Positions 4,603-63,780 of a stretch of DNA of 64,000 bases are shown piece by piece. A program made the position numbers and the translations under genes. How positions within the stretch are numbered: position 1 is the first letter of the stretch; every line of letters starts with the position of its first letter. The stretch is taken from NCBI RefSeq assembly GCF_056746865.1, contig NZ_CM163382.1. One strand, given 5' to 3'. The notes below the pieces were generated by a model. It had not been told where the DNA came from. It saw nothing but the letters and a program-made list of their open reading frames with translations, and searched no databases.

Positions 4603-5091
4603 ATGAGTGAGATAGTGATACGCCATGCTGAAACGCGGGACTACGAGGCCATCAGGCAGATTCACGCCCAGCCGGAGGTGTATTGCAACACGCTACAGGT
4701 GCCTCATCCCTCCGATCATATGTGGCAGGAGCGACTCGCCGATCGCCCCGGCATCAAGCAGTTAGTCGCCTGTATTGATGGAATCGTCGTAGGCCATCTC
4801 ACCATTGACGTGCAACAACGCCCACGCCGCAGTCATGTTGCCGATTTTGGTATCTGTGTCGACTCCCGTTGGAAGAATCGCGGTGTCGCCAGCGCCCTGA
4901 TGCGAGAGATGATTGAAATGTGCGACAACTGGTTGCGGGTAGATCGTATTGAGCTAACGGTGTTCGTCGATAACGCGCCAGCAATTAAGGTCTATAAAAA
5001 ATTTGGATTTGAGATTGAAGGGACTGGCAAGAAGTACGCATTACGTAATGGTGAATATGTCGATGCGTATTATATGGCGCGGGTGAAGTAA
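4603..5091 (+). CDS. yhhY: GNAT-family N-acetyltransferase
   Basis: Internal ATG at 4603 of ORF 4510..5091 gives a 162-aa product (MSEIVIRHAETRDYEAI...) with an acetyl-CoA-binding motif (RWKNRGVASALM). Confidence 0.85.
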   Translation: MSEIVIRHAETRDYEAIRQIHAQPEVYCNTLQVPHPSDHMWQERLADRPGIKQLVACIDGIVVGHLTIDVQQRPRRSHVADFGICVDSRWKNRGVASALMREMIEMCDNWLRVDRIELTVFVDNAPAIKVYKKFGFEIEGTGKKYALRNGEYVDAYYMARVK

Positions 5092-5097
5092 GATAGT

Positions 5098-5123
5098 GCC
5101 CTTTTTCTGAGATGGAAAAAGGG
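5098..5123 (+). terminator. Candidate hairpin terminator after yhhY
   Basis: GCCCTTTTTCTGAGATGGAAAAAGGG forms a perfect 8-bp stem (CCCTTTTT/AAAAAGGG). Confidence 0.35.
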
Positions 5124-5326
5124 TGTCATTCAAAATCGGCATACCTTCCTTTAAGGTATTTATTTTCCCAATAAATATATAAGATTTACCTCATAATTAC
5201 GTCCTAAAGTGTAATATTTTATTTTTTAATATATACGCCTACAATTTCCTGGAGTAAATAAATAACAATTAACAAGCATAATAGTGCCATTGATAAAATA
5301 GCATGCCATAAAAGGACTTTTCATGG

Positions 5327-6439
5327 ATGAGTAATATTGTTTACCTGACAGTAACGGGAGAACAACAAGGAAGCATCTCCGCAGGTTGTGGGACTTCTGA
5401 GTCTACAGGTAATCGCTGGCAGAGCGGGCATGAGGATGAAATATTTACATTCTCACTCTTAAATAGTATTACTAATACGGGGCTTGGTTCACAGTTCCAT
5501 GGTATAACATTTTGTAAATTAATTGATAAAAGCACTCCATTATTTATTAATTCCATTAACAATAATGAACAATTATTTATGGAATTTGACTTCTATCGAA
5601 TAAATAGATTTGGTAGATGGGAAAAGTATTATTATATACAACTAAGAGGCGCTTTTTTATCGGCTATTCATCATCAGATCATTGAAAATCAACTGGATAC
5701 AGAAACATTAACTGTTAGTTATGAATTTATCCTCTGTCAACATCTTATCGCAAATACCGAGTTCAGCTATTTGGCACTCCCTGAAAATTATAACTGTTTG
5801 TTTTTACCAAATTCAAAAAACCAAACAAATAATCGTTTCAAAACGTTAAACAGCAAAGCTATTGGCAGGCTACTTGCTGCTGGTGGCGTATACAATGGGA
5901 ACATTGAAGGATTCAGAGATACTGCGGAAAAACTGGGTGGAGATGCAATAAAAGGCTATGATCAAATACTAAATGAAAAAACAGCGGGCATAGCGATAGC
6001 AACAGCATCTATTCTTTTAACAAAGCGTTCTAATGTTGATACATATACAGAAATAAATAGTTACTTAGGCAAACTTAGAGGTCAACAAAAACTTCTTGAT
6101 GGTATAGACATAATAGAAATAATATACATTAAGAGACCTTCAAAAGACTTAGCTAACTTACGAAAGGAGTTTAATAAAACTGTAAGAAAAAATTTTCTTA
6201 TCAAACTTGCAAAAACCTCCGAAGCATCTGAAAGATTCAACGCCGAAGACCTTTTAAGAATGAGAAAGGGCAATGTTCCTCTAAATTATAATGTTCACCA
6301 TAAACTATCTCTAGATGATGGTGGTACTAATGATTTCGAAAATTTAGTATTAATCGAAAACGAACCATATCATAAAGTTTTTACTAACATGCAATCACGA
6401 ATAGCTAAGGGAGTATTAGTAGGTAGACTGGCCCCCTGA
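5327..6439 (+). CDS. yhhZ: Hcp-family (T6SS tube-like) protein fused to a C-terminal HNH nuclease domain; 3' end replaced by the IS2 insertion
   Basis: N-terminal Hcp-like region followed by an HNH motif (NYNVHHKLSLDDGGTNDFENLVLIENEPYHK). The reading frame runs into the IS2 left end at 6424 and terminates after 4 IS-encoded codons (RLAP). Confidence 0.8.
   Translation: MSNIVYLTVTGEQQGSISAGCGTSESTGNRWQSGHEDEIFTFSLLNSITNTGLGSQFHGITFCKLIDKSTPLFINSINNNEQLFMEFDFYRINRFGRWEKYYYIQLRGAFLSAIHHQIIENQLDTETLTVSYEFILCQHLIANTEFSYLALPENYNCLFLPNSKNQTNNRFKTLNSKAIGRLLAAGGVYNGNIEGFRDTAEKLGGDAIKGYDQILNEKTAGIAIATASILLTKRSNVDTYTEINSYLGKLRGQQKLLDGIDIIEIIYIKRPSKDLANLRKEFNKTVRKNFLIKLAKTSEASERFNAEDLLRMRKGNVPLNYNVHHKLSLDDGGTNDFENLVLIENEPYHKVFTNMQSRIAKGVLVGRLAP
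6419..6423. repeat. 5-bp target-site duplication (GTAGG), left copy
   Basis: GTAGG immediately precedes the IS2 left end and recurs at 7755..7759 immediately after the right end. Confidence 0.85.
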
Positions 6440-6514
6440 ATCTCCAGACAACCAATATCACTTAAATAAGTGATAGTCTTAATACTAGTTTTTAGACTAG
6501 TCATTGGAGAGCAG

Positions 6515-6880
6515 ATGATTGATGTCTTAGGACCGGAGAAACGCAGACGGCGTACTACACAGGAAAAGATCGCTATTGTTCAGCAGAGTTTTGAACCGGG
6601 AATGACGGTCTCCCTTGTTGCCCGGCAACACGGTGTGGCAGCCAGCCAGTTATTTCTCTGGCGCAAGCAATACCAGGAGGGAAGTCTTACTGCTGTGGCC
6701 GCAGGAGAGCAGGTCGTTCCTGCCTCTGAACTTGCTGCTGCCATGAAGCAGATTAAAGAACTCCAGCGCCTGCTCGGCAAAAAAACGATGGAAAATGAAC
6801 TCCTTAAAGAAGCCGTTGAATACGGGCGTGCAAAAAAGTGGATAGCGCACGCGCCCTTATTGCCCGGGGATGGGGAGTAA
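6515..6880 (+). CDS. insC: IS2 OrfA (InsC), HTH transposase subunit
   Basis: [53 protein letters not shown]..., 121 aa from the internal ATG of ORF 6470..6880. Confidence 0.9.
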
Positions 6881-7743
6881 GCTTAGTCAGCCGTTGTCTC
6901 CGGGTGTCGCGTGCGCAGTTGCACGTCATTCTCAGACGAACCGATGACTGGAAAGATGGTCGCCGCAGCCGTCACTCAGATGATACGGATGTGCTTCTCC
7001 GTATACACCATGTTATCGGAGAGCTGCCCACGTATGGTTATCGTCGGGTATGGGCGCTGCTTCGCAGACAGGCCGAACTTGATGGTATGCCTGCGATCAA
7101 TGCCAAACGTGTTTACCGGATCATGCGCCAGAATGCGCTGTTGCTTGAGCGAAAAACCGCTGTACCGCCATCGAAACGGGCACATACTGGCAAAGTGGCC
7201 GTGAAAGAAAGCAATCAACGATGGTGCTCTGACGGGTTCGAGTTCCGCTGTGATAACGGAGAAAAACTGCGAGTCACGTTCGCGCTGGACTGCTGTGACC
7301 GTGAGGCACTGCACTGGGCAGTCACTACGGGCGGCTTCGACAGTGAAACAGTACAGGACGTAATGCTGGGAGCGGTGGAACGCCGCTTCGGCAACGAGCT
7401 TCCGGCGTCTCCAGTAGAGTGGCTGACGGATAATGGTTCATGCTACCGGGCTAATGAAACACGGCAGTTTGCCCGGATGTTGGGGCTTGAACCGAAGAAC
7501 ACGGCGGTGCGGAGTCCGGAGAGTAACGGCATAGCAGAGAGCTTCGTGAAAACGATAAAGCGTGACTACATCAGTATCATGCCTAAACCAGACGGGTTAA
7601 CGGCAGCAAAGAACCTTGCAGAGGCGTTCGAGCATTATAACGAATGGCATCCGCATAGTGCACTGGGTTATCGCTCGCCACGGGAATATCTACGGCAGCG
7701 GGCCAGTAATGGGTTAAGTGATAACAGGTGTCTGGAAATATAG
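6838..7743 (+). CDS. insD: IS2 OrfB (InsD), DDE transposase catalytic subunit, expressed as an OrfAB fusion by -1 frameshift
   Basis: 301-aa ORF overlapping insC in the -1 frame, with an integrase-core-like sequence. Confidence 0.9.
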
Positions 7744-7754
7744 GGGCAAATCCA

Positions 7755-7759
7755 GTAGG
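7755..7759. repeat. 5-bp target-site duplication (GTAGG), right copy
   Basis: Identical to 6419..6423. Confidence 0.85.
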
Positions 7760-7841
7760 TGAAAGCAAAATCACTCCCTGGGCCATTCCATCTGGCTCAA
7801 TTTATCCTCCCATGAAAAATATTATGGAACCCACAAAATGA
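7755..7841 (+). pseudogene. yhhZ: Displaced 3' end of yhhZ (last ~26 codons, ESKITPWAIPSGSIYPPMKNIMEPTK)
   Basis: Joining 6423 to 7760 (removing IS2 and one duplication copy) restores a continuous frame that ends at the TGA at 7839..7841, giving a 392-aa product. Confidence 0.75.
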
Positions 7842-8332
7842 TGACTAAAACCCAAATAAATAAATTAAAAAAAATGATGAATGATTTAGACTATCCATTT
7901 GAAGCACCGCTCAAGGAATCATTTATTGAAAGTATAATCCAAATAGAATTTAATTCTAATTCAACTAATTGCCTGGAGAAATTATGTAATGAAGTTAGTA
8001 TTCTTTTTAATAATCAACCTGATTATCTTAATTTTTTAAGAGCAATGGATGGATTCGAAGTTAATGGATTACGATTATTTAGCCTCTCGATTCCAGAACC
8101 TTCAGTTAAAAACCTTTTTACCGTAAATGAATTTTATAGAAATAATGATGATTTCATAAACCCTGATCTACAAGAACGGTTAGTGATCGGGGATGATAGC
8201 ATTTCAATATTTACTTATGACATTAAAAGTAACTTTTTTGAAATTAGAGATAATATTGGCACCGAAAATATATTCAGTTCGTTTAGTGATTTCTCTTCAT
8301 TCTTAAACGAAATCATGGACAGTTGTTCATAA
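7838..8332 (+). CDS. yrhA: Putative immunity protein for the YhhZ nuclease (SUKH/Smi1-Knr4-like)
   Basis: 164-aa ORF whose ATG overlaps the reconstructed yhhZ stop (ATGA), indicating translational coupling; it carries an ...FLRAMDGFEVNGLRLFSL... motif reminiscent of SUKH immunity proteins. The name is assigned from position. Confidence 0.6.
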   Translation: MMTKTQINKLKKMMNDLDYPFEAPLKESFIESIIQIEFNSNSTNCLEKLCNEVSILFNNQPDYLNFLRAMDGFEVNGLRLFSLSIPEPSVKNLFTVNEFYRNNDDFINPDLQERLVIGDDSISIFTYDIKSNFFEIRDNIGTENIFSSFSDFSSFLNEIMDSCS

Positions 8333-8543
8333 TAATCAAAAGGTAACAAAAATCATTGTAAACCATGCCATCTTTTTAGAGATTACCAGCAGAAAATTCC
8401 TTGTTCGAAACTTAGCAATGCAAGCTATGGAAAAACTTACAACGGAACTACACTCCTTAAGTGAGATGGACCGAAGACATGTAATCTCTATTTTAGCCGA
8501 AATAGCTAATGGCTATGATGATTTTAGTGACATGTTGATTTAG
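8331..8543 (+). pseudogene. Start-less open frame / gene remnant (...LAMQAMEKLTTELHSLSEMDRRHVISILAEIANGYDDFSDMLI)
   Basis: About 70 sense codons are open with the first ATG only at 8418; the frame differs from yrhA and the region is AT-rich. Confidence 0.3.
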
Positions 8544-8566
8544 TTAGAACTTCACCCGAATCATAA

Positions 8567-8746
8567 GATTCTGATATCTTAAATAAGAAAATCCCGTTCG
8601 ACGTTCTGAAAAAGAAATCACAAAATATTAGCAGATACTTATTTCGTGACTGTATATTATCCGATGAACTTTTTTCAAAACCAGCATTTAATAATATATT
8701 TGACGAAGATGAACGCGTCTTTTCTCAAAGTATAACGCAAGAATAA
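8567..8746 (+). pseudogene. Start-less open frame / gene remnant (...FRDCILSDELFSKPAFNNIFDEDERVFSQSITQE)
   Basis: 59 open codons with no in-frame ATG, ending at the TAA at 8744..8746. Confidence 0.3.
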
Positions 8747-8781
8747 TAATATAACGATCAACAATAATATTTATTATAATT

Positions 8782-9066
8782 ATGATTACTTATCACGACG
8801 CATTCGCGAAAGCGAACCATTACCTTGATGATGCAGATCTCGCCGTCGTCATTACTCTACATGGACGCTTTAGCCAGGGCTGGTATTTCTGTTTCGAAGC
8901 ACGAGAATTTCTCGAAACTGGTGATGAGGCCGCGCGTTTATCCGGTAACGCACCTTTTATTATTGATAAAGACAGTGGTGAAATTCATTCCCTTGGAACG
9001 GCAAAGCCGCTGGAAGAATATCTACAGGATTATGAAATAAAAAAGGCTACCTTCGGCTTGCCCTGA
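8782..9066 (+). CDS. yrhB: Small YrhB-family protein
   Basis: 94-aa ORF (MITYHDAFAKANHYLDDADLAVVITLHGRFSQGWYFCFEAREF...) located upstream of ggt as in E. coli. Confidence 0.8.
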   Translation: MITYHDAFAKANHYLDDADLAVVITLHGRFSQGWYFCFEAREFLETGDEAARLSGNAPFIIDKDSGEIHSLGTAKPLEEYLQDYEIKKATFGLP

Positions 9067-9103
9067 CAATACGGCCCTCTTCCCACGAAGAGGGCCGCTA
9101 ACC

Positions 9104-37785: not shown

Positions 37786-38175
37786 ATGAGACATTACATG
37801 AAATGGTTTGCGGCTATTGCTGTTGTGGGTGCTTTAGCGGGTTGCGCGCGTACTGCGCCAATTGATCAGGTTCACTCAACCGTCAGCGCTGGTCATACCC
37901 AGGAACAAGTGAAAAAAGCGATTCTGAAAGCTGGCGTTGAACGCAAATGGATTATGTCCGAAGCCGGACAAGGCGTAATTAAAGCACGTCAACAGTCACG
38001 CGATCATTCAGCCGAAATTCGCATTAACTACACGGCATCCAGCTACGATATCAATTATGAAAATAGCCAGAACCTACAAGCGTCAGGCGGACAAATTCAT
38101 AAAAACTACAATCGCTGGGTCCGCAATCTCGACAAAGATATTCAACTGAATTTGTCAGCGGGCGCAGATTTATAA
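37786..38175 (+). CDS. Small lipoprotein, first gene of the accessory cluster
   Basis: 129-aa ORF with a lipobox (LAGC); follows ~330 bp of AT-rich sequence and may correspond to the first ape gene (position only). Confidence 0.55.
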   Translation: MRHYMKWFAAIAVVGALAGCARTAPIDQVHSTVSAGHTQEQVKKAILKAGVERKWIMSEAGQGVIKARQQSRDHSAEIRINYTASSYDINYENSQNLQASGGQIHKNYNRWVRNLDKDIQLNLSAGADL

Positions 38176-38234
38176 TTCTTCCTAAAGTCGGGCCGCTGCG
38201 GTCCGATAATAATTTAATTCCCTCTTAACAGGTT

Positions 38235-39302
38235 GTGCCCAACATGTACGAACAGGATTCTCTTAGCGCACTGGATGCGATTACCGAAGCTCAACGCATT
38301 GCCTTTGCCCCTATGCTTTTTCAAACAGCACTCTGCCTACGTAATGCGGGTGTACTTTCATATCTGGATCGGCAAGGCAAACATGGCGCAACGCTGGCTG
38401 ATATCACCGAACATAGCCATATCAACGAATATGCGGCCAGCGTTCTGTTAGATATGGGCTTAAGCGGGCGAATTATTACCTGTAAAGAGGGAATGTATTA
38501 CCTGGCGAAAATCGGTCATTACCTCCTGCATGACACTATGACTCGCGTGAATATGGATTTCACCCAGGATGTCTGTTACCAGGGGCTCTTCTTCCTCGCC
38601 GATTCACTCAATGAAGGAAAACCGTCCGGGTTAAAAGTATTTGGCGACTGGTCGACGATATATCCGGCACTTTCACAATTACCAGACGCCGCTCGTGAAA
38701 GCTGGTTTGCGTTTGATCATTACTATTCAGATGGCGCATTTAACGCCGCACTGCCTTATGTATTCGCCAACAACCCCACAACATTGTACGATGTAGGCGG
38801 CAATACGGGTAAGTGGGCTTTGCGTTGCTGCAAATACAATGAAAACATAGCCGTGACGTTATTAGATCTGCCACAACAAATCGTACTAGCGAAAGAAAAT
38901 ATCGCGAATGCAGGTTTTTCTGATCGCATAGATTTCCATGCGGTGGATATGCTAAGCGATGCCCCATTACCGGGCGAGGCTGATATCTGGTGGATGAGCC
39001 AATTTTTAGACTGTTTTTCACCCGAACAAATAATTAGCATACTCAGCAAAATCGCCAGCGTAATGAAGCCTGGCGCAAAAGTTTGCATCATGGAGTTGTT
39101 CTGGGATGCGCAGCGGTTTGAAGCAGCATCATTTAGCCTGAACGCGTCCTCACTTTATTTTACCTGCATGGCAAACGGTAACAGCCGTTTCTATAGTGCA
39201 GAGAAATTTTACGACTATCTGAATAAAGCAGGATTCCAGGTAGCAGAGCGCCACGATAATTTAGGCGTTGGGCATACACTTTTGATATGCCAAAAGAAAT
39301 AA
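38235..39302 (+). CDS. Class I SAM-dependent methyltransferase (ApeB-like)
   Basis: 355-aa ORF with a glycine-rich SAM-binding motif (LYDVGGNTGKWA) and an acidic-loop motif (LLDLPQ). Confidence 0.75.
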   Translation: MPNMYEQDSLSALDAITEAQRIAFAPMLFQTALCLRNAGVLSYLDRQGKHGATLADITEHSHINEYAASVLLDMGLSGRIITCKEGMYYLAKIGHYLLHDTMTRVNMDFTQDVCYQGLFFLADSLNEGKPSGLKVFGDWSTIYPALSQLPDAARESWFAFDHYYSDGAFNAALPYVFANNPTTLYDVGGNTGKWALRCCKYNENIAVTLLDLPQQIVLAKENIANAGFSDRIDFHAVDMLSDAPLPGEADIWWMSQFLDCFSPEQIISILSKIASVMKPGAKVCIMELFWDAQRFEAASFSLNASSLYFTCMANGNSRFYSAEKFYDYLNKAGFQVAERHDNLGVGHTLLICQKK

Positions 39303-39342
39303 TCGTCACTTAATAATTTTGGTTTACCGCGGGCGCGCGTTG

Positions 39343-40065
39343 ATGAAATTTACATTAAATATTACCGACTGGCAGGCACTGGCGCCTGGACTTAGCGAAG
39401 CGCAGCAATGGCAAGCATGGTCGCGCCAGCCGTGGGCGATTGACCCTGCCGCGCCGTTGGCAAAATTAAGTGAACTGCCAATGATGACCGCCCGCCGCCT
39501 TAGTTCAGGCAGCAAACTGGCTGTTGAATGCGGTCTGGCAATGCTACGCCGCCATCAGCCAGACGCCGTTTTGTATACCAGTCGTCATGGCGAACTGGAG
39601 CGCAATTACCGCATTGTTCATGCACTGGCAACCGAACAGGCGCTTTCTCCGACCGACTTCGCGCTCTCCGTACACAACTCTTCCGTGGGTAACCTGACCA
39701 TTGCGGCCAAACAGCCGATAGTTTCGTCATCGCTTTCTGCTGGTCGCGACACTTTCCAGCAAGGTTTGTGTGAAGTGCTTAGCCTGTTACAAGCGGGATA
39801 CCAGCGCGTGTTGATGGTCGATTTTGACGGTTTTCTGCCCGAGTTTTATCACCCACAACTGCCATCAGAAATGCCGACCTGGCCGTACGCCGTCGCGCTG
39901 GTGATTGAATCTGGCGATGACTGGCAATGTGAAACGCAGTCAGCCATTGCGGGCAATGAAACATCACTGCCGCAAAGCATGTTGTTTTTACAGCATTATT
40001 TACAAAATGCAGACGCATTTTCACTGCCTGGCGAGCGCGTGCAATGGCGCTGGAGCCGCAGATGA
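39343..40065 (+). CDS. Ketosynthase-like protein lacking the active-site Cys (chain-length-factor-like, ApeC-like)
   Basis: About 240 aa resembling the N-terminal half of a KS; the position equivalent to the catalytic Cys reads HNSS rather than CSSS. Confidence 0.65.
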   Translation: MKFTLNITDWQALAPGLSEAQQWQAWSRQPWAIDPAAPLAKLSELPMMTARRLSSGSKLAVECGLAMLRRHQPDAVLYTSRHGELERNYRIVHALATEQALSPTDFALSVHNSSVGNLTIAAKQPIVSSSLSAGRDTFQQGLCEVLSLLQAGYQRVLMVDFDGFLPEFYHPQLPSEMPTWPYAVALVIESGDDWQCETQSAIAGNETSLPQSMLFLQHYLQNADAFSLPGERVQWRWSRR

Positions 40066-40883
40066 GTAAGCTGATGTCACGTCTGGAGTGGACCTGGCGA
40101 CTGGTCATGACCGGGTTATGTTTTGCCCTGTTTGGTCTCGGCGGCCTGCTGCTTTCTGTCGTGTGGTTTAACATATTGTTAGTTTTGGTGTGGGATACTT
40201 CCCGCCGCCGTCGTTTGGCGCGTCGCAGCATTGCCGCCAGTTTTCGCCTGTTTTTAACTGTCGCGAAAGGGCTTGGCGTGCTGGATTATCGTATTGATGG
40301 CGCTGAAATTTTACGTCAGGAACGCGGTTGCCTCGTCGTAGCCAATCATCCCACGCTGATCGATTACGTGCTGCTGGCGTCAGTCATGCCAGAAACTGAC
40401 TGCCTGGTGAAAAGCGCGCTGTTAAAAAATCCTTTTCTTGGCGGCGTCGTGCGGGCGGCAGATTATTTAATCAACAGCGAAGCTGAAACCCTGTTACCCC
40501 GCTGCCAACAGCGACTGGCACAGGGTGACACTATCCTGATTTTCCCCGAAGGCACGCGAACGAAGCCCGGTGAAAAAATGACGCTGCAGCGCGGGGCGGC
40601 GAATATTGCCGTGCGCTGTGCCAGCGATTTACGCATCGTGACGATCGGCTGTAGCGAGCATCTGCTGGATAAACAAAGTAAATGGTATGACGTTCCACCT
40701 GACCGGCCGTTTTTTACGGTTGAAGTCCATGGTCGGGTTGAAATCAATAAATTTTACGATGCAACTTCACAAGAACCGGCGCTGGCAGCAAGGCAGTTAA
40801 ACCGGCATCTTTTGCTTCTATTACAACAAGGTTGTTTACCTCTCTCAGGAATAAATAATGCAAGCGCTTTATCTGGAAATTAA
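40062..40883 (+). CDS. Lysophospholipid (PlsC-family) acyltransferase (ApeD-like)
   Basis: HX4D acyltransferase motif (VANHPTLIDY) plus FPEGTR; N-terminal TM helix; ATGA overlap with the upstream gene. Confidence 0.75.
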   Translation: MSKLMSRLEWTWRLVMTGLCFALFGLGGLLLSVVWFNILLVLVWDTSRRRRLARRSIAASFRLFLTVAKGLGVLDYRIDGAEILRQERGCLVVANHPTLIDYVLLASVMPETDCLVKSALLKNPFLGGVVRAADYLINSEAETLLPRCQQRLAQGDTILIFPEGTRTKPGEKMTLQRGAANIAVRCASDLRIVTIGCSEHLLDKQSKWYDVPPDRPFFTVEVHGRVEINKFYDATSQEPALAARQLNRHLLLLLQQGCLPLSGINNASALSGN

Positions 40884-41115
40884 AAACCTCATCATCAGCA
40901 CCCTCAATCTGGACGAGTTGACTCCTGATGATATCGAGACCGATGCGCCGCTGTTCGGCGACGGTTTAGGACTGGATTCCATCGATGCCCTGGAACTGGG
41001 ACTGGCAGTAAAAAATGAGTACGGCGTGGTGCTCTCAGCCGAAAGCGAAGAGATGCGTCAGCACTTTTTCTCCGTCGCCACTCTGGCCTCTTTCATTGCT
41101 GCGCAACGCGCCTGA
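40858..41115 (+). CDS. Acyl carrier protein 1
   Basis: 85-aa acidic protein with the phosphopantetheine-attachment motif GLGLDSIDALEL. Confidence 0.85.
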   Translation: MQALYLEIKNLIISTLNLDELTPDDIETDAPLFGDGLGLDSIDALELGLAVKNEYGVVLSAESEEMRQHFFSVATLASFIAAQRA

Positions 41116-41126
41116 GGAAAGCCATC

Positions 41127-41378
41127 ATGACAGAACAACAAACCGTCTATCAGGAAGTCTCAGCCCTGCTGGTTAAGCTGTTTGAAATCGATCCGCAGGA
41201 CATCAAACCTGAAGCGCGCCTGTACGAAGATCTGGAACTGGACAGCATCGACGCCGTTGACATGATTGTGCACCTGCAAAAGAAAACCGGTAAGAAAATC
41301 AAGCCGGAAGAGTTTAAAGCAGTGCGCACAGTTCAGGATGTCGTAGAGGCTGTAGAACGCCTGCTACAAGAAGCCTGA
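41127..41378 (+). CDS. Acyl carrier protein 2
   Basis: 83-aa acidic protein with the motif DLELDSIDAVDM. Confidence 0.85.
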   Translation: MTEQQTVYQEVSALLVKLFEIDPQDIKPEARLYEDLELDSIDAVDMIVHLQKKTGKKIKPEEFKAVRTVQDVVEAVERLLQEA

Positions 41379-41382
41379 TCTG

Positions 41383-41964
41383 ATGTCGGGCATTCGCTCG
41401 CTACCGATGATTAAGCTGCTGACTGGATTATTGCTGCTCGCCTGGCCGTTTGTGATTTGGTTTGGCCTGGCGCATAACGGCCTGCACTGGTTGTTGCCGC
41501 TAATAGCGTTGCTGCTATTGTTGCGCCTGCGCCAGACCCGTCGCCGGGCGGGGCCGCTACAAGCCGTCACACAAATCGTCGCTGTCGTGGGCATCGCATT
41601 GTGTGTCGCCAGCTTTCTGTTGAAAACGCACCAGCTACTGCTGTTTTACCCGGTAGTGGTTAACGCGATCATGCTGGCGGTTTTTGGCGGTTCGCTGTGG
41701 TCGACAATGCCGATAGTTGAGCGGCTGGCACGTTTGCAGGAGCCAGACCTCCCGGAAAAGGGCGTGCGCTATACCCGCCGTGTCACGCAAATCTGGTGCG
41801 GCTTTTTCATCATTAACGGCGGAATTGCCCTCTTTACCGCGCTTTATGGCGATATGTCGTTATGGACCGCCTGGAACGGCATGATTGCTTATTTTTTGAT
41901 GGGAACGTTAATGGCAGGTGAATGGCTGGTGCGCCGTCAGGTGATAAAAAGAGATCGCTCATGA
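41383..41964 (+). CDS. Integral membrane protein of unknown function (ApeG-like)
   Basis: 193-aa ORF with about 4 hydrophobic helices. Confidence 0.6.
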   Translation: MSGIRSLPMIKLLTGLLLLAWPFVIWFGLAHNGLHWLLPLIALLLLLRLRQTRRRAGPLQAVTQIVAVVGIALCVASFLLKTHQLLLFYPVVVNAIMLAVFGGSLWSTMPIVERLARLQEPDLPEKGVRYTRRVTQIWCGFFIINGGIALFTALYGDMSLWTAWNGMIAYFLMGTLMAGEWLVRRQVIKRDRS

Positions 41965-43322
41965 AGCAGACCTTACCGCTTGCACGCTGGCTGACTGCGC
42001 CACGCCCTGATGACACGCCCATTGCGTGGCTGGACGAAAGCTCGTGGACACTGGGCGATTTGCGTCACGATGTCGCGCAACTTATCTGCCGCTTGCAGCA
42101 ACAGCCGGGTGAACGCTGGGCGCTGTGCTTTGAGAACAGTTATTTGTTTATCGTTGCCCTGCTTGCCACGCTACACGCCGGAAAAACGCCGGTGCTTCCG
42201 GGGCATAACCGTGTCATCCAGCTTAATGAACAACGTGAACTGTTCGATGGTGTACTTAGCGACAGCGATCTTAACTGGCAAGGTTCATTGCTGTTGGTAG
42301 CAAGTTCCCCACAAGTCGCGACACAATCATTCACCTTTGCCGCTATAGCGCCAGACGCTTATATCGAGCTATTTACCTCCGGTTCTACGGGGCAGCCAAA
42401 GCGGGTAATTAAACCTGTTCATTTGCTGGACCGTGAAGCAGAACTGCTGGCTGAACGATTAGGCGCACGTCTTGCCGGATGTCGTGTCGTCGGTTCCGTA
42501 TTGCCGCAGCATCTGTACGGCCTGACTTTTCGCGTTTTCCTGCCAATGGCGCTGGGATTACCGCTGCACGCCGCCATGCTCTGGTATGTCGAACAGTTTG
42601 CCGCATTGAGTCACCAGCATCGCTATATCTTCATCAGCAGCCCGGCATTTTTGAAACGGCTGGATACCCAGCTTTCTCCGCCGCCCGTTCAGGTGCTTCT
42701 CTCTGCTGGCGGTGAGCTGCCGTGGCAGGACGTAAAACACACCGCGAGCTGGCTGCGCGTCTGGCCTGATGAAATCTACGGCAGCACGGAAACCGGCGTC
42801 ATTGCCTGGCGTTACCGCGAACAAGAGCAACGCCGCTGGCTGCCCTTTCCAGGTATGCACTTCCAGGCCGAAGGTGAAGCATTTCGTCTCTTTTCACCGC
42901 TGATAGCGGAAGATAACGGCCTGTTACTCGATGATCTCTTGCAGTTTAGCCAGGACGGTCAGTTCCATCTGATGGGGCGTCGTGGGCGCATCGTTAAGAT
43001 TGAAGAAAAACGTATTTCTCTGCAGGAAGTAGAACAACGTCTGCTGGCGCTGGACGGCATTCGCGAGGCGGCGGCAGTTCCCGTTACGCGCGGCGGGCGT
43101 CAGAGCATCGGCGTTTTGCTGGTGCTGGATGACGAAGCTCGCCTGCAATGGCAGAACGGCGGCGGGCATAGCCAGGAAATGACCTGGCGGCGATTACTGC
43201 GCCCGACGCTGGAGCCAGTTGCTATTCCGCGTTACTGGCGCGTTATTGATGAAATGCCAGTAAACAGTATGAACAAGCGTGTCTATGCGCAATTACAGGA
43301 GTTATTTCATGAAGCCCCATGA
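41961..43322 (+). CDS. Acyl-CoA/acyl-ACP synthetase (adenylate-forming ligase, ApeH-like)
   Basis: AMP-binding motif YIELFTSGSTGQPKRV; ATG at 41961 overlaps the upstream stop. Confidence 0.8.
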   Translation: MKQTLPLARWLTAPRPDDTPIAWLDESSWTLGDLRHDVAQLICRLQQQPGERWALCFENSYLFIVALLATLHAGKTPVLPGHNRVIQLNEQRELFDGVLSDSDLNWQGSLLLVASSPQVATQSFTFAAIAPDAYIELFTSGSTGQPKRVIKPVHLLDREAELLAERLGARLAGCRVVGSVLPQHLYGLTFRVFLPMALGLPLHAAMLWYVEQFAALSHQHRYIFISSPAFLKRLDTQLSPPPVQVLLSAGGELPWQDVKHTASWLRVWPDEIYGSTETGVIAWRYREQEQRRWLPFPGMHFQAEGEAFRLFSPLIAEDNGLLLDDLLQFSQDGQFHLMGRRGRIVKIEEKRISLQEVEQRLLALDGIREAAAVPVTRGGRQSIGVLLVLDDEARLQWQNGGGHSQEMTWRRLLRPTLEPVAIPRYWRVIDEMPVNSMNKRVYAQLQELFHEAP

Positions 43323-43662
43323 AATCGAGCGCCATCAGGCACAAGCGAATCACCTTGAGATTGTTTTGCATCTCAGGGCAGATCTGTTCTGGTTTCGCGG
43401 CCATTTTGCCGTGCAGCCGTTACTCCCAGGAGTTGCACAAATCGACTGGGCGATGAGCTACGCGCTCACTCTGCTCGCGCCTGGCTGGCGTTTTCACTCT
43501 ATTCAGAACATCAAATTCCAGTCCCCGTTGCTGCCGGACAACCGCGTCACGCTCACGCTTAACTGGCAGGAAGAACGCCAGATTCTGAGCTTTAGCTATC
43601 AGCGTCACGACGGTGACGCCCGCCACACCGCCAGTAGCGGGAAGATCCGCCTATGTCGGTAA
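43309..43662 (+). CDS. Hotdog-fold 3-hydroxyacyl-ACP dehydratase (FabZ/FabA-like)
   Basis: About 117 aa with FRGHFAVQPLLPGVAQID, a typical dehydratase motif. Confidence 0.7.
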   Translation: MKPHEIERHQAQANHLEIVLHLRADLFWFRGHFAVQPLLPGVAQIDWAMSYALTLLAPGWRFHSIQNIKFQSPLLPDNRVTLTLNWQEERQILSFSYQRHDGDARHTASSGKIRLCR

Positions 43663-45329
43663 ACTTTTCTCCCTGCGTGTTGATCCCCTGCTACAACCAC
43701 GGCGCGATGATGCCGGGCGTGCTGGCGCGTCTTAAGCCATTTAATCTGCCCTGTATTGTAGTGGATGACGGCAGCGATGCCGCCACGCAACAGCAACTGG
43801 ATAATCTGGTTGCCGAACAGCCTGGCGTGACCTTAATTCGCCTGGCAGAAAACGCAGGCAAAGGCGCGGCAGTGATGCGTGGCTTACAGGCAGCGGCAGA
43901 CGCGGGCTTCAGCCATGCGGTGCAGGTGGATGCTGACGGTCAGCACGCGATTGAAGACATCCCTAAACTGCTGGCACTCGCTGAACAGCAGCCTGCGGCG
44001 CTGATCTCCGGCCAGCCGATTTACGATGACTCCATCCCCCGCTCACGGCTGTACGGGCGCTGGGTCACCCACGTGTGGGTATGGATCGAAACGCTCTCCC
44101 TGCAACTGAAAGACAGTATGTGCGGCTTTCGCGTTTATCCGGTTGCGCCAACGCTGCAACTGGCAAAATACGCTACCATCGGCAAGCGGATGGATTTTGA
44201 CACCGAAGTGATGGTGCGCCTCTACTGGCAGGGAAATACCAGTTATTTCGTGCCGACCCGCGTCACCTATCCGCTGGACGGGCTTTCGCATTTTGATGCC
44301 CTGAAAGATAACGTCCGCATCTCGCTGATGCACACACGTCTGTTTTTCGGCATGTTGCCGCGTATTCCTTCACTGCTGATGCGCCACTCTTCCAGCCACT
44401 GGGCGCGGCAGAGCGAAGTGAAAGGGTTATGGGGAATGCGCCTGATGCTGCTGGTCTGGCGTCTGCTGGGAAGAACTGCGTTTACCGCGCTGCTTTACCC
44501 GGTGGTGGGCGTCTACTGGCTCACCGCTGCTCGTGCACGTAAAGCGTCGCAAGACTGGCTCGCCCGTGTGCGCCAACAACAACCACAGGCAGCAAAACTC
44601 AACAGCTATCAGCATTTTCTACGTTTCGGCAACGCCATGCTCGACAAAATCGCCAGCTGGCGCGGCGAGCTGCAACTCGGGCGTGATGTGCTGTTTGCAC
44701 CAGGCGCAGAAGCGGCACTTAACGTCAGCGATCCGCGCGGCAAATTGCTGCTGGCCTCGCATCTTGGCGATGTGGAAGTGTGCCGGGCGCTGGCAAAAAT
44801 TCAGGGCTACAAAACCATTAACGCGCTGGTGTTTAGCGAAAACGCCCAACGCTTTAAACAGATAATGCAGGAGATGGCCCCGCAGGCAGGCATCAACCTG
44901 CTCCCGGTAACAGATATCGGCCCGGAAACCGCCATCCTGCTGAAAGAGAAGCTGGATAACGGCGAATGGGTGGCGATTGTCGGTGACCGCATCGCCGTCA
45001 ACCCGCAACGCGGCGGCGACTGGCGCGTCTGCTGGAGTCCGTTTATGGGCCAGCCTGCGCCTTTCCCACAGGGGCCGTTTATTCTTGCGTCTATTTTGCG
45101 CTGCCCGGTGAATCTGATTTTCGCCCTGCGCCAGCACGGCAAGCTGCATATTCACTGCGAAACCTTTGCCGACCCGCTGCTGTTGCCGCGTGGCGAACGC
45201 CAGCAGGCGCTGCAAAACGCTATCGATCATTACGCCGCGCGTCTGGAACATTACGCGCTCCAGTCGCCCCTCGACTGGTTTAATTTTTTCGATTTCTGGC
45301 AACTGCCGGAAGTCCAGGACAAGGAGTAA
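43653..45329 (+). CDS. Bifunctional protein: N-terminal GT2 glycosyltransferase fused to a C-terminal LpxL/HtrB-like lipid acyltransferase domain (ApeJ-like)
   Basis: 558-aa ORF; N-terminus CVLIPCYNHG...VVDDGSDA (GT-A fold); C-terminal half has LASHLGDVEV and IVGDR motifs resembling lipid A late acyltransferases. Confidence 0.7.
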   Translation: MSVNFSPCVLIPCYNHGAMMPGVLARLKPFNLPCIVVDDGSDAATQQQLDNLVAEQPGVTLIRLAENAGKGAAVMRGLQAAADAGFSHAVQVDADGQHAIEDIPKLLALAEQQPAALISGQPIYDDSIPRSRLYGRWVTHVWVWIETLSLQLKDSMCGFRVYPVAPTLQLAKYATIGKRMDFDTEVMVRLYWQGNTSYFVPTRVTYPLDGLSHFDALKDNVRISLMHTRLFFGMLPRIPSLLMRHSSSHWARQSEVKGLWGMRLMLLVWRLLGRTAFTALLYPVVGVYWLTAARARKASQDWLARVRQQQPQAAKLNSYQHFLRFGNAMLDKIASWRGELQLGRDVLFAPGAEAALNVSDPRGKLLLASHLGDVEVCRALAKIQGYKTINALVFSENAQRFKQIMQEMAPQAGINLLPVTDIGPETAILLKEKLDNGEWVAIVGDRIAVNPQRGGDWRVCWSPFMGQPAPFPQGPFILASILRCPVNLIFALRQHGKLHIHCETFADPLLLPRGERQQALQNAIDHYAARLEHYALQSPLDWFNFFDFWQLPEVQDKE

Positions 45330-45332
45330 AGG

Positions 45333-45755
45333 GTGCTTAACGATCCCCGATTTACCGCTGAAGTCGAGCTGACCATTCCCTTTCACGACGTCGATATGAT
45401 GGGCGTGGCCTGGCACGGTAACTATTTTCGCTACTTTGAAGTGGCCCGCGAGGCGCTGCTCAACCAGTTCAATTACGGCTATCGGCAGATGAAAGAGTCC
45501 GGTTATTTGTGGCCAGTGGTCGATGCGCGGGTGAAATATCGCCACGCCCTCACCTTTGAGCAACGCATCCGCGTGCGTGCACATATCGAAGAGTTCGAAA
45601 ACCGTCTGCGGATTGGCTATCAGATTTTCGATGCCGAAACGGGCAAACGCGCCACCACCGGATACACCATTCAGGTCGCGGTCGACGAGCAAAGCCGCGA
45701 ACTGTGCTTTGTCAGCCCCGATATTTTGTTTGAACGCATGGGAGTCAAACCATGA
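45333..45755 (+). CDS. 4HBT/YbgC-like hotdog thioesterase
   Basis: 140-aa ORF with a GTG start and the motif FHDVDMMGVAWHGNYFRYFE. Confidence 0.75.
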   Translation: MLNDPRFTAEVELTIPFHDVDMMGVAWHGNYFRYFEVAREALLNQFNYGYRQMKESGYLWPVVDARVKYRHALTFEQRIRVRAHIEEFENRLRIGYQIFDAETGKRATTGYTIQVAVDEQSRELCFVSPDILFERMGVKP

Positions 45756-46357
45756 AATTTTTACCACTGCTGGCGCTGCTGATTAGCCCGTTTGTGAGCG
45801 CCCTGAACCTGGACGATCTTCAGCAACGCTTTACCGAACAGCCGGTGATCCGCGCTCATTTCGATCAAACCCGGACGATTAAAGATCTGCCGCAGCCGCT
45901 ACGATCTCAGGGCCAGATGTTGATCGCCCGCGACCAGGGGCTGTTGTGGGATCAAACCTCACCATTTCCCATGCAACTATTGCTGGACGATAAACGCATG
46001 GTGCAGGTGATCAACGGTCAGCCGCCGCAAATCATCACGGCAGAAAATAACCCGCAGATGTTCCAGTTTAACCACCTGCTGCGCGCGCTGTTCCAGGCCG
46101 ATCGCAAAGTGCTGGAACAAAATTTCCGCGTCGAATTTGCTGACAAAGGCGAAGGCCGCTGGACACTGCGCCTGACGCCGACCACCACGCCGCTGGATAA
46201 AATTTTCAACACCATCGATCTCGCCGGGCAAACCTATCTGGAGAGCATTCAGCTTAATGATAAACAGGGCGATCGCACCGATATCGCTCTTACCCAACAT
46301 CAACTGACGCCAGCGCAACTGACCGATGACGAACGCCAACGTTTTGCCGCCCAGTAA
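45752..46357 (+). CDS. LolA-like outer-membrane lipoprotein carrier protein
   Basis: 201-aa ORF with a signal peptide (MKFLPLLALLISPFVSA); LolA-like length and composition. Confidence 0.65.
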   Translation: MKFLPLLALLISPFVSALNLDDLQQRFTEQPVIRAHFDQTRTIKDLPQPLRSQGQMLIARDQGLLWDQTSPFPMQLLLDDKRMVQVINGQPPQIITAENNPQMFQFNHLLRALFQADRKVLEQNFRVEFADKGEGRWTLRLTPTTTPLDKIFNTIDLAGQTYLESIQLNDKQGDRTDIALTQHQLTPAQLTDDERQRFAAQ

Positions 46358-48644
46358 ACGCCCGGCGCTGTTATGGGGGATCGTCTGCCTGGTCATGGCG
46401 GCGGCGTTGCTGATCCTGTTGCCGCAATCACGACTGAACAGTAGCGTGCTGGCTATGTTACCCAAACAGGCGATGGGCGATATTCCTCCAGCGCTGAATG
46501 ACGGCTTTATGCAGCGTCTGGACCGCCAACTGGTGTGGCTGGTCAGCCCCGGTAAAGAGGCTAATCCCAGGGTGGCTCAGGAGTGGCTGACGCTGCTGCA
46601 AAAATCCGCTGCGCTCGGCGACGTTAAAGGGCCAATGGATGCCGCCAGCCAGCAGGCGTGGGGAGCGTTTTTCTGGCAGCACCGCAACGGCCTGGTTGAC
46701 CCCGACACCCGCGCGCGCCTGCAAAACGGCGGCGAAGCGCAGGCGCAGTGGATCCTCTCCCAGCTTTATTCTGCGTTCTCCGGGGTAAGCGGTAAGGAGC
46801 TGCAAAACGATCCGCTGATGTTAATGCGTGGCTCGCAGCTGGCGATGGCGAAAAACGGCCAGCGTTTGCGGCTGATGGACGGCTGGCTGGTGACGCAGGA
46901 TCCCCAGGGCAACTACTGGTATCTGCTGCACGGCGAACTGGCGGGATCGTCGTTTGATATGCAGCAAACCCACCAGCTCATCACGACCCTGAATACGCTG
47001 GAAAAGGATCTGAAAACGCGTTACCCGCAGGCGCAGTTGCTCTCGCGCGGCACGGTGTTTTACAGCGATTACGCCAGCCAACAGGCGAAGCAGGATATCT
47101 CCAACCTGGGCGTGGCAACGCTGCTGGGGGTGATATTACTGATTGTGGCGGTGTTCCGCTCTTTACGCCCATTGCTGCTTTGCGTGATTTCCATCGGCAT
47201 CGGCGCGCTGGCGGGAACGGTCGCCACCTTGTTGATTTTCGGCGAATTACACCTGATGACGCTGGTGATGAGCATGAGCGTTATCGGCATTTCCGCTGAC
47301 TACACGCTCTATTACCTCACCGAGCGGATGGTGCACGGCAATGACGTTTCGCCGTGGCAAAGCCTGGCGAAAGTGCGCAATGCCCTGCTGCTGGCGCTGC
47401 TCACCACCGTGGCGGCGTATCTGATTATGATGCTCGCCCCCTTCCCCGGCATTCGCCAGATGGCGATTTTTGCCGCCGTCGGGTTGAGCGCCTCCTGTCT
47501 GACCGTCCTGTTCTGGCATCCGTGGCTGTGCCGTGGCCTGCCGGTGCGTCCGGTTCCGGCGATGGCGCTGATGCTGCGCTGGCTGGCTGCGTGGCGGCGT
47601 AATAAAAAACTGTCGCTGGGTCTGCCCGTCGCGCTGGCGCTGTTTTCGCTGGCGGGGATGTCAATGCTGCGCGTCGACGACGATATCTCGCAGTTACAGG
47701 CGCTACCGCAGCATATTCTGGCCCAGGAGAAAGCCATTACCGCCCTGACCGGACAAAGCGTCGATCAAAAATGGTTTGTAGTTTACGGCGACTCTCCACA
47801 GCAAACATTGCGGCGGCTGGAGAAATTTACCGCCTCGCTGGAGAATGCGAAAAAAGAGGGGCTTATCAGCAACTACCGCACCATTCCGCTGAACTCCCTG
47901 GCGCGGCAGGAGGAAGATTTACATCTGCTGAAAACGGCTGCCCCGACAGTAACAAAAGCACTGCAAAATGCCGGGCTGGCGGCAGTGAATCCGGATCTCA
48001 ACGCCATGCCAGTGAAGGTCGATGAATGGCTGGCAAGCCCCGCCAGTGAAGGCTGGCGTCTGCTGTGGCTGACGCTGAAAAACGGCGAAAGCGGCGTACT
48101 GGTGCCGGTTGAAGGGGTTAAAAGTAGCGCGTTGTTGCAGGAAATCGCCAGCGATTACCCTGGCGGCATTGCCTGGGTTGATCGCAAAAGCACCTTTGAT
48201 GAGTTGTTCGCACTTTACCGCTACGTCTTAACCGGTTTGTTGCTGGTGGCGCTGGCGGTGATTGCCTGCGGCGCAGTGGCCCGCCTCGGCTGGCGCAAAG
48301 GGCTTATCAGCCTGGTGCCTTCGGTACTTTCGCTGGGCTGCGGTCTGGCAGTGCTGGCGATGAGCGGGCAGGCGGTGAATCTCTTTTCGCTACTGGCGCT
48401 GGTGCTGGTGCTTGGCATCGGCATCAATTACACGCTGTTTTTCAGTAATCCGCGCGGTACACCGTTAACTTCCCTACTGGCGATCACGCTGGCAATGCTC
48501 ACCACCTTGCTGGCGCTGGGAATGCTGGTATTCAGCGCCACCCAGGCCATCAGCAGTTTTGGCATTGTGCTGGTGAGCGGTATTTTCACCGCCTTCCTGC
48601 TTTCGCCGCTGGCTATGCCCGATAAAAAGAGAACAAAAAAATGA
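46326..48644 (+). CDS. MMPL/RND-superfamily exporter (start codon uncertain)
   Basis: 772-aa ORF with two blocks of about 6 TM helices separated by soluble domains. Confidence 0.75.
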   Translation: MTNANVLPPSKRPALLWGIVCLVMAAALLILLPQSRLNSSVLAMLPKQAMGDIPPALNDGFMQRLDRQLVWLVSPGKEANPRVAQEWLTLLQKSAALGDVKGPMDAASQQAWGAFFWQHRNGLVDPDTRARLQNGGEAQAQWILSQLYSAFSGVSGKELQNDPLMLMRGSQLAMAKNGQRLRLMDGWLVTQDPQGNYWYLLHGELAGSSFDMQQTHQLITTLNTLEKDLKTRYPQAQLLSRGTVFYSDYASQQAKQDISNLGVATLLGVILLIVAVFRSLRPLLLCVISIGIGALAGTVATLLIFGELHLMTLVMSMSVIGISADYTLYYLTERMVHGNDVSPWQSLAKVRNALLLALLTTVAAYLIMMLAPFPGIRQMAIFAAVGLSASCLTVLFWHPWLCRGLPVRPVPAMALMLRWLAAWRRNKKLSLGLPVALALFSLAGMSMLRVDDDISQLQALPQHILAQEKAITALTGQSVDQKWFVVYGDSPQQTLRRLEKFTASLENAKKEGLISNYRTIPLNSLARQEEDLHLLKTAAPTVTKALQNAGLAAVNPDLNAMPVKVDEWLASPASEGWRLLWLTLKNGESGVLVPVEGVKSSALLQEIASDYPGGIAWVDRKSTFDELFALYRYVLTGLLLVALAVIACGAVARLGWRKGLISLVPSVLSLGCGLAVLAMSGQAVNLFSLLALVLVLGIGINYTLFFSNPRGTPLTSLLAITLAMLTTLLALGMLVFSATQAISSFGIVLVSGIFTAFLLSPLAMPDKKRTKK

Positions 48645-49225
48645 TCAAACCCACATTCTGGCGAGCGTTCGCCCTGACCGCTACGCTTATCCTCACCGGC
48701 TGTAGCCACTCGCAACCGGAACAGGAAGGTCGCCCACAGGCGTGGCTGCAACCTGGCACGCGCATCACGCTGCCGGCACCAGGGATTTCGCCCGCCGTTA
48801 ATTCCCAGCAACTATTGAGCGGCAGCTTCAACGGCAAAACCCAGTCTCTGCTAGTGATGCTTAACGCCGACGACCAGAAAATCACCCTTGCCGGGCTGTC
48901 GTCGGTCGGCATTCGTCTGTTTCTGGTGACCTACGATGCGCAAGGGCTACGCGCCGAGCAATCCATCGTCGTCCCACAGTTGCCGCCCGCAAGTCAGGTG
49001 CTGGCTGACGTGATGCTTAGCCACTGGCCGATTAGCGCCTGGCAACCGCAACTCCCCGCTGGATGGACGCTTCGCGACAACGGTGACAAACGCGAACTGC
49101 GTAACGCCAGCGGCAAACTGGTCACGGAAATCACCTATCTGAATCGCCAGGGAAAACGCGTGCCAATCAGCATTGAACAGCATGTCTTTAAATACCACAT
49201 CACCATTCAATATTTAGGTGACTGA
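48641..49225 (+). CDS. Lipoprotein (DUF3261-like, possibly LolB-like)
   Basis: 194-aa ORF with a lipobox (LTGC). Confidence 0.65.
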   Translation: MIKPTFWRAFALTATLILTGCSHSQPEQEGRPQAWLQPGTRITLPAPGISPAVNSQQLLSGSFNGKTQSLLVMLNADDQKITLAGLSSVGIRLFLVTYDAQGLRAEQSIVVPQLPPASQVLADVMLSHWPISAWQPQLPAGWTLRDNGDKRELRNASGKLVTEITYLNRQGKRVPISIEQHVFKYHITIQYLGD

Positions 49226-50396: not shown

Positions 50397-50857
50397 GCCA
50401 CTATTTATCCCCCGGCGCTTATCTGCCCCACGACGCGCCCATGTTACTGCTGGAAGAAGTGGTGAGCGTCAGCGATGACAGCGCGGTGTGCCGTGTAACG
50501 GTCTCGCCCAGTGGCGTACTGGCACCGTTTCTCGACCCGGACGGCAATCTCCCTGGCTGGTTTGCCCTTGAATTGATGGCGCAAACCGTCGGCGTCTGGT
50601 CTGGCTGGCATCGCCACCAGCAGGGCAAAAACAGTATTGAGTTAGGGATGGTACTGGGCGCACGTGAATTGCTTTGCGCCGCTGGCATTCTGCCCGCAGG
50701 CCAGACGCTGACCATTACCGTCAAACTCCTGATGCAAGACGATCGCTTCGGCAGTTTTGAGTGCAGCATCAACAACGGCACGGCAACGGGCCGCATTAAC
50801 ACCTTCCAGCCGACCGCGGAAGAACTTACCACCCTGTTTCAACAAGGAGCGTCCTGA
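50393..50857 (+). CDS. Hotdog-fold dehydratase (FabA/FabZ-like, ApeP-like)
   Basis: 154-aa ORF overlapping the neighbouring genes; hotdog-like length and motif spacing. Confidence 0.6.
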   Translation: MSHYLSPGAYLPHDAPMLLLEEVVSVSDDSAVCRVTVSPSGVLAPFLDPDGNLPGWFALELMAQTVGVWSGWHRHQQGKNSIELGMVLGARELLCAAGILPAGQTLTITVKLLMQDDRFGSFECSINNGTATGRINTFQPTAEELTTLFQQGAS

Positions 50858-59779: not shown

Positions 59780-59803
59780 ATACACTTTTTTATGAGGAAT
59801 AAA

Positions 59804-60555: not shown

Positions 60556-60631
60556 TTAATAATAATTAATTTCAACCCACTCCATCAGGCGCTAACGCGA
60601 GGTGCGCTCTCGCCTGAAAAAGAGGTTTATT

Positions 60632-63750: not shown

Positions 63751-63780
63751 TTAACTGATATTAAAAGATGAGGTTTTCAA

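Follow-up and report, generated by a model that had tools for sequence, protein, structure and literature searches.

An IS2-type insertion interrupts the Hcp-nuclease gene of the yhhZ-yrhA-yrhD-yrhB island between yhhY and ggt

Introduction

How is an effector built on an Hcp domain, the tube protein of type VI secretion systems (T6SS), put to use where no other secretion gene lies beside it? The question is raised by the interval between yhhY and ggt in a 64,000-nucleotide stretch of contig NZ_CM163382.1 (RefSeq assembly GCF_056746865.1), here called the window. A first-pass annotation had placed an AT-rich island at positions 5092 to 8780, which encodes an Hcp-nuclease with no T6SS structural genes nearby, and had left three options: delivery by a T6SS encoded elsewhere, a relic, or a role independent of T6SS. 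The foreign island, the Hcp-nuclease and the lack of a nearby T6SS were upheld here, and the three options were mostly resolved through the literature on orthologues and through an insertion sequence (IS) that cuts the toxin gene.

The island is already known; its genes are named in K-12, and an orthologue has been characterized as Hcp-ET1/ETi1. The new detail is a strain-private IS2. Very probably the locus is the known yhhZ-yrhA-yrhD-yrhB island, with a toxin of the Hcp-ET1 type and YrhA as its immunity protein, in which IS2 most likely inactivates the toxin and leaves the strain immune but unarmed.

Results

An IS2-type element cuts the toxin gene after codon 366

The toxin gene and the element that interrupts it comprise the following features.

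5327..6439, plus strand: truncated yhhZ/tssD (Hcp-ET1 type), 370 amino acids (aa), i.e., native residues 1-366, the IS2 codons RLAP and a stop
5327..5767, plus strand: Hcp (T6SS tube protein) domain, residues 1-147
6290..6379, plus strand: HNH (His-Me finger) catalytic motif, residues 322-351, kept
6419..6423, no strand: left GTAGG target-site duplication, 5 bp, read from the sequence; GTAGG is present once in the uninterrupted allele
6424..7754, plus strand: IS2-type insertion sequence (IS3 family), 1331 bp, GC 0.53, oriented as yhhZ
6515..6880, plus strand: IS2 orfA, Pfam HTH_Tnp_1; the listed open reading frame (ORF) begins at 6470 (GTG), with an ATG at 6515
6838..7743, plus strand: IS2 orfB, DDE integrase core, Pfam rve (E = 8.5e-20) and also rve_3
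7755..7759, no strand: right GTAGG target-site duplication, read from the sequence
7755..7841, plus strand: displaced yhhZ 3' end, codons 365-392 and stop (VGESKITPWAIPSGSIYPPMKNIMEPTK, then the stop), with no in-frame start upstream

The extra 1331 bp were found by alignment to strain 118UI, which is 100% identical on either side and whose intact allele encodes 392 aa; residues 1-366 of that protein are identical to those of the window ORF. An Hcp domain fused to a nuclease, as first annotated, is indeed encoded, but the ORF at 5327-6439 represents a truncated form of 370 aa. The inserted element, which we take to be IS2 from its ends, its length and the 5-bp duplication, has the features of the IS2/IS3 family: a size of ∼1.3 kb, overlapping reading frames with an A6G slippery motif (AAAAAAG, 6833-6839) at the orfA/orfB overlap, a DDE (rve) domain, imperfect terminal inverted repeats and the 5-bp duplication. 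Copies 99.6 to 100% identical are present on many E. coli chromosomes and plasmids, where RefSeq labels them IS3 family transposase. One 100% identical copy lies on a 233-kb plasmid of a chicken isolate (NZ_CP102854.1) and several other plasmid copies are 99.9% identical, which hints at a plasmid-borne source of the element.

None of 5426 complete E. coli genomes carried IS2 at this exact site, and the chimeric truncated product did not occur in a collection of 15 billion proteins. Since the duplication and the reading frames of the IS are intact and the flanks are identical, these observations point to a recent and strain-private insertion. The element has inserted cleanly after codon 366, so that the last 26 residues were swapped for 4 foreign ones and the toxin gene was split from yrhA.

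The displaced tail is conserved and modelled as part of the nuclease domain

The Hcp domain was recognized by NCBIfam TIGR03344 (118.3 bits; cut-off, 58.9) and by Pfam T6SS_HCP (44.7 bits; cut-off, 23.5; E = 2e-11), and solved Hcp3 matched it with E = 2.6e-12. The Pfam HNH match stayed below threshold (17.3 versus 21.4 bits). In an alignment of 43 homologues (36 to 96% identity), H324, H325, D330, D331, N335, N339 and H349 were invariant. A classification of the His-Me finger superfamily gives YhhZ a group of its own (PMC5714182), and the protein was earlier termed an "evolved Hcp" (PMC2907695). Between the Hcp and HNH parts, a helical linker at residues ∼170-235 (window 5835-6030) shows the strongest conservation in the family (19 invariant columns, among them NSK..GRLLAAGGVYNGN) and matches no Pfam model; it may serve as a translocation or entry module.

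The 26 lost C-terminal residues include W373, P376 and Y381, which are invariant among the 43 homologues from E. coli to Pantoea/Erwinia, as well as G378 and P382, which hardly vary; E. coli specificity is limited to the final ten residues of the tail. In the AlphaFold2 (AF2) model, residues 368-376 form a strand with a predicted local distance difference test score (pLDDT) of ∼82 to 86. The window copy therefore does not encode a complete C-terminal HNH toxin domain, and because the lost tail holds invariant residues and the model confidently makes it a strand of the nuclease domain, the cut toxin is most likely inactivated or destabilized. The Hcp half of the model reached a pLDDT of 30 to 55 (shallow alignment), and no inference on ring formation was drawn from it.

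The same tail bears on a different reading, in which the truncated Hcp-HNH product keeps its function as an effector, fired via a T6SS elsewhere, and yrhA is expressed by read-through or from IS2-derived transcription. Such a protein would keep all invariant HNH-core residues, which precede the break at residue 366, and an untouched Hcp domain; IS2 is oriented as the operon, and relatives carry a T6SS. However, the three invariant and two near-invariant residues are gone together with the modelled strand, and the tail segment was missing from none (0/42) of the aligned full-length homologues. We regard a working truncated effector as unlikely. Scans for promoters and terminators yielded no more than shuffled sequence did, and no IS2-derived yrhA promoter is claimed; an Rfam search returned only a subthreshold chance match to a plant small nucleolar RNA.

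Intact orthologues are reported to be delivered by a T6SS encoded elsewhere

Hcp-ET1 and ETi1 of O104:H4 strain C227-11 and of STEC004 were reportedly described by Ma et al. in 2017 (Virulence 8:1189). In the yhhY-ggt locus of C227-11, the toxin gene is AAF13_RS24950 (tssD) and the next gene is AAF13_RS24945 (yrhA). The toxin is identical at 381 of 392 positions (97%) between C227-11 and the intact allele of the lineage studied here, and YrhA is 97% identical. A review equates Hcp-ET1 of Shiga toxin-producing E. coli with AAF13_24945 and describes it as an HNH-DNase with an inhibitory effect on bacterial growth, for which T6SS2 is the delivery system (PMC6730261). The published tag thus falls on or next to the gene at this locus, and YhhZ is taken as an orthologue of the experimentally studied Hcp-ET1. 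A preprint presents Hcp-ET1 as an orphan hcp that has ETI1 downstream, and names T6SS2, not T6SS1, as its route of delivery (bioRxiv 10.1101/2024.03.05.583533); the downstream ETi1 is reported to neutralize Hcp-ET1 in O104:H4 and STEC004 (PMC6730261, bioRxiv 10.1101/2024.03.05.583533).

Because delivery by T6SS2 has been reported for Hcp-ET1, the question of delivery from elsewhere is already answered for the intact orthologues; the copy in the window is cut by IS2. By analogy with these near-identical orthologues, an intact YhhZ would be built, by way of its Hcp domain, into the tube of T6SS2, whose genes lie elsewhere, at aspV. Its DNase part would then be fired into neighbouring bacteria and degrade their DNA, and kin would be spared by YrhA.

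Apart from tssD/yhhZ, the window contains no T6SS genes, as first annotated. This was confirmed by annotation transfer from EC31, the nearest complete relative (99.996% identical over 15717-64000), and from 118UI, which covers the left part; the corresponding EC31 region holds ugp, liv, rpoH, fts, znt and nik genes, an aryl-polyene-type cluster and a phosphotransferase system (PTS) cluster. At its aspV tRNA, EC31 encodes a full T6SS cluster with all 13 core genes tssA-tssM, in which tssL is annotated as icmH/DotU and tssD as Hcp. The cluster comprises tssB, C, E, F, G, tagH, tssJ, K, L, H, vasI, tssA, M, a VasL-domain gene and two hcp genes, besides a vgrG annotated as a pseudogene. It is collinear with the cluster of C227-11 (TssC 76% and Hcp 94% identical), and tssBC of 118UI is identical to that of EC31. 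With the two Hcp proteins of the EC31 cluster, the YhhZ Hcp domain shares 38% and 29% identity. Megablast with the EC31-type tssBC matched 552 genomes, a figure that undercounts T6SS2-type clusters (C227-11 is 76% identical at the protein level) and is unfit for co-occurrence statistics. Next to the cluster (NZ_CP056036.1; locus L005, 2096-13619), the vgrG of EC31 is followed by a gene for a DUF4123 adaptor, two hypothetical genes, fragments of ISAs1 and a group II intron; this cluster is being remodelled at its effector end.

The downstream genes include two predicted immunity genes

Downstream of IS2, the island holds three named genes.

7838..8332, plus strand: yrhA (= ETi1 by inference), intact, 164 aa, predicted SUKH-fold immunity protein
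8427..8543, plus strand: yrhD pseudogene, 38 codons; codon 39, TAT in the 51-aa gene of K-12, is the nonsense codon TAG
8782..9066, plus strand: yrhB, 94 aa, orphan Imm35-family immunity protein, GC 0.45

YrhA models confidently as a SUKH-fold immunity protein; the alpha/beta fold was found in its predicted structure by fold search. No Pfam model, including those of SUKH, matched YrhA directly, and its sequence gave only chance matches to solved structures. Among its phmmer-linked members (n = 37), 17 matched SMI1_KNR4, 13 SUKH_6 and 12 SUKH_5. In uninterrupted relatives, the tssD stop overlaps the yrhA start as ATGA, i.e., the immunity gene directly follows the toxin gene; in the window, IS2 places it 1.4 kb away. 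An Enterobacter locus (CP056148.1; L012, 8001-9663) encodes a linker and HNH toxin ∼67% identical to that of YhhZ, followed by a YrhA homologue of 62% identity. Because the toxin-YrhA pairing is conserved there, a cognate toxin-immunity relationship is supported.

yrhD is annotated as a pseudogene in strain 118UI as well. A short open stretch between yrhD and yrhB (∼8640-8745, ending in YLFRDCILSDELFSKPAFNNIFDEDERVFSQSITQE and a stop codon), downstream of in-frame stops, has the appearance of a decayed gene end. YrhB matched Pfam Imm35 (PF15567) over profile positions 1-85 of 85 (E = 4.4e-22; 78.5 bits, cut-off 27.5). The island holds no second toxin gene that could belong to it; upstream of yrhB are only the yrhD pseudogene and decayed sequence. 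Because a toxin partner is missing from the island, yrhB is an orphan immunity gene. PADLOC returned no defence-system match at E ≤ 0.01 for YhhZ, YrhA or YrhB.

The island is compositionally atypical and occupies a variable site

Its limits are best given by comparison with a strain in which the site is empty.

5091..9103, no strand: whole variable island, yhhY stop to ggt stop, 4013 bp, including 1336 bp of IS2 and duplication

The GC content was 0.329 at 5092-6423, 0.530 at 6424-7754 and 0.304 at 7755-8781, compared with 0.528 for the whole 64-kb window. One-kilobase segments outside the island (n = 583) had a mean GC of 0.537 with a standard deviation (SD) of 0.040 and a minimum of 0.419, so both AT-rich arms lie ∼5 SD under the mean. 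GC at third codon positions (GC3) was 0.25 in yhhZ and 0.24 in yrhA versus 0.41 to 0.78 in 57 other long ORFs. The codon-adaptation index, computed locally with the flanking genes as reference set, was 0.44 for the yhhZ ORF and 0.51 for yrhA versus 0.58 to 0.72 for core genes. The AT-richness that had been claimed relative to the flanking core genes was thus borne out; GC and codon usage indistinguishable from the flanks, which would have spoken against it, were not found. The compositional anomaly is genuine and far exceeds chance, but it does not run evenly through the interval. A sliding-window profile gave an AT-rich block, a block of normal GC and a second AT-rich block, and the AT-richness first assigned to 5092-8780 is not uniform, since the middle block is the overlooked IS2-type element.

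The right end at 8780 also proved too short. In the empty-site strain ampC_0069 (locus L015), the match to the window ends at 5090 and restarts at 9104, such that yhhY is followed by 60 bp and then ggt. yrhB is missing there together with the rest of the island, and because homology resumes only at 9104, yrhB belongs to the island. yhhY itself was matched in all but 3 of 5426 genomes, and in ∼1600 of them the match breaks at window 5091-5093, the yhhY stop codon. O157:H7 (NZ_CP064383.1; locus L014, 6490-8344) carries another AT-rich insert of 1855 bp (GC 0.318) in the same yhhY-ggt site; the insert, which holds a single 303-aa DUF4225 gene, corresponds to window 5092-9067. Given this insert in O157:H7 and the empty site in other strains, the yhhY-ggt site is a variable locus with three alleles (yhhZ island, DUF4225 insert and empty).

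Atypical composition and sharp-edged presence or absence thus both mark a horizontally acquired island; mobility signatures were not found. No integrase or tRNA is annotated at the island, and the two borders have no direct repeat of ≥8 bp in common and no att-like repeats. This lack of marks is what could be expected if the low GC were ordinary local variation of core sequence and not of foreign origin. The depth of the GC minimum, the GC3 of 0.24 to 0.25, the presence or absence of the segment with exact boundaries, and the other AT-rich cassette of O157:H7 leave that explanation a negligible probability, and it was refuted by the empty-site comparison. The island is an anciently acquired AT-rich cassette without mobility genes at a variable site. 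yhhZ-yrhAB had earlier been listed as a genomic island (PMC3309015), and the locus is listed as a genomic island or as foreign genes in K-12 and O104:H4 (PMC3309015, PMC3661553). In K-12, H-NS-bound "promoter islands" lie within yhhZ and yrhA (PMC3661553, Table 1), and this binding, together with the low GC, suggests that the locus is normally silenced.

The island is widespread in E. coli

The yhhZ-yrhA pair was present in 3812 of 5426 complete E. coli genomes (70%), as a single chromosomal copy with ≥97% identity. Other insertions were seen in the island: IS1 inside yrhA in K-12, IS1 in place of yhhZ-yrhA in strain N9, and, in strain L37, IS1, IS2 and another IS1 downstream of yrhA. Draft E. 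coli assemblies contain hundreds of "partial" Hcp-HNH proteins at contig ends (clusters P0004, P0007, P0010, P0015 and P0094), e.g., 631 and 526 members for two truncated forms. They would be in line with repeated elements often interrupting yhhZ, but contigs may also break for other reasons.

So wide a retention could reflect a role independent of T6SS, e.g., as an intracellular toxin-antitoxin or a stress/biofilm module, which would explain why the island is kept without an apparatus. K-12, reportedly devoid of a T6SS (PMC6730261), has an intact yhhZ, and other genera fuse the toxin module to DUF8093 and not to Hcp, again as an orphan pair. Yet killing by the orthologue is reported to depend on T6SS2, YrhA has the fold of polymorphic-toxin immunity proteins, and PADLOC gave no match. 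K-12, moreover, tolerates an IS1-broken yrhA beside intact yhhZ, which argues against an addictive toxin-antitoxin pair, and a silenced island can persist vertically without function. We consider a T6SS-independent role very unlikely.

Other gene clusters in the window

An aryl-polyene-type cluster between yhhT and acpT (∼37786-52814) encodes an ApeP dehydratase, ketosynthases, acyl carrier proteins, an MMPL transporter, a LolA-like protein and a glycosyltransferase. C227-11 (O104:H4) has no such cluster, and yhhT adjoins acpT there. A PTS/FGGY kinase/class II aldolase cluster lies between nikR and yhhJ (59034-64000); its GntR-family regulator gene (59034-59779) is frameshifted by annotation in the near-identical EC31.

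Discussion

An intact island of this kind would encode an effector of the Hcp-ET1 type, in which a conserved helical linker joins a T6SS tube domain at the N terminus to an HNH (His-Me finger) domain at the C terminus, together with YrhA as the cognate SUKH immunity protein, the small YrhD and YrhB as an orphan Imm35 protein. In the window, the relic option raised for this locus applies most likely as a very recent relic beside an intact immunity gene, since IS2 removes the conserved tail.

Several points weigh against an immune but unarmed strain with an Hcp-ET1-type island. The equation of yhhZ with Hcp-ET1 depends on reviews, a preprint and a published locus tag at most one gene away from that of RefSeq. 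All catalytic residues of the HNH motif precede the break, and inactivation is argued from conservation and from a model that is poor at full length (mean pLDDT, 60) and confident only at residues 250-385. The apparatus is known from near-identical relatives, and vgrG of the EC31 cluster is annotated as a truncated pseudogene, such that the apparatus may not function. Lastly, with the island in 70% of genomes and yhhZ intact in K-12, which reportedly lacks an apparatus, the island persists without T6SS.

The significance is mostly one of annotation. tssD/yhhZ of this strain should be given as a pseudogene disrupted by IS2, yrhA and yrhB as immunity genes (SUKH and Imm35), and the island as 5091-9103. 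Beyond this, repeated IS hits may mark selection exceeding a mere preference for AT-rich targets, by which lineages would shed the toxin and keep immunity in an "immune but unarmed" strategy. Or a function of the linker-HNH part that does not need a T6SS may be why 70% of E. coli retain the island. We think either is quite improbable.

Among known systems, the SUKH (SMI1/KNR4) proteins YobK of B. subtilis (2prv), Lin2918 (2icg) and RhsPI (8bd1) are linked to YrhA via distant homologues and the predicted fold. The Rhs2-CT HNH toxin of Serratia marcescens with RhsI2 (PDB 9t38) and the colicin E7/E9 DNases are only ∼20% identical to the toxin described here; they have Rhs/PAAR or colicin translocation domains in place of Hcp, and YrhA has the predicted SUKH fold and not that of Im7/Im9. 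Closer are the DUF8093-HNH proteins of Enterobacter, Klebsiella, Leclercia, Pantoea, Serratia and Erwinia, in which linker and HNH are 50 to 70% identical and a YrhA homologue (62%) follows downstream, the pair again being an orphan. No T6SS gene was found within 8 kb of the Enterobacter locus. In contrast to YhhZ with its Hcp domain, these proteins begin with DUF8093 (PF26362), for which a profile search found no relative in the PDB and a Pfam set without PF26362 gave no match.

The yhhZ-yrhA'-IS1E-yrhD-yrhB locus of K-12 is the same island at the same site, with a toxin identical at 382 of 392 positions and with H-NS-bound genes. There, IS1 breaks yrhA and leaves yhhZ intact, whereas in the window IS2 breaks yhhZ and yrhA is intact; this contrast, with the immunity gene broken in one case and the toxin gene in the other, is a neat example of cassette decay. 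Hcp-ET1/ETi1 differs from the window copy in that the toxin gene of the latter is cut by IS2 after codon 366 and its yrhD carries a nonsense codon. In its yhhY-ggt locus, its gene order and its orphan status relative to the T6SS cluster, it is alike.

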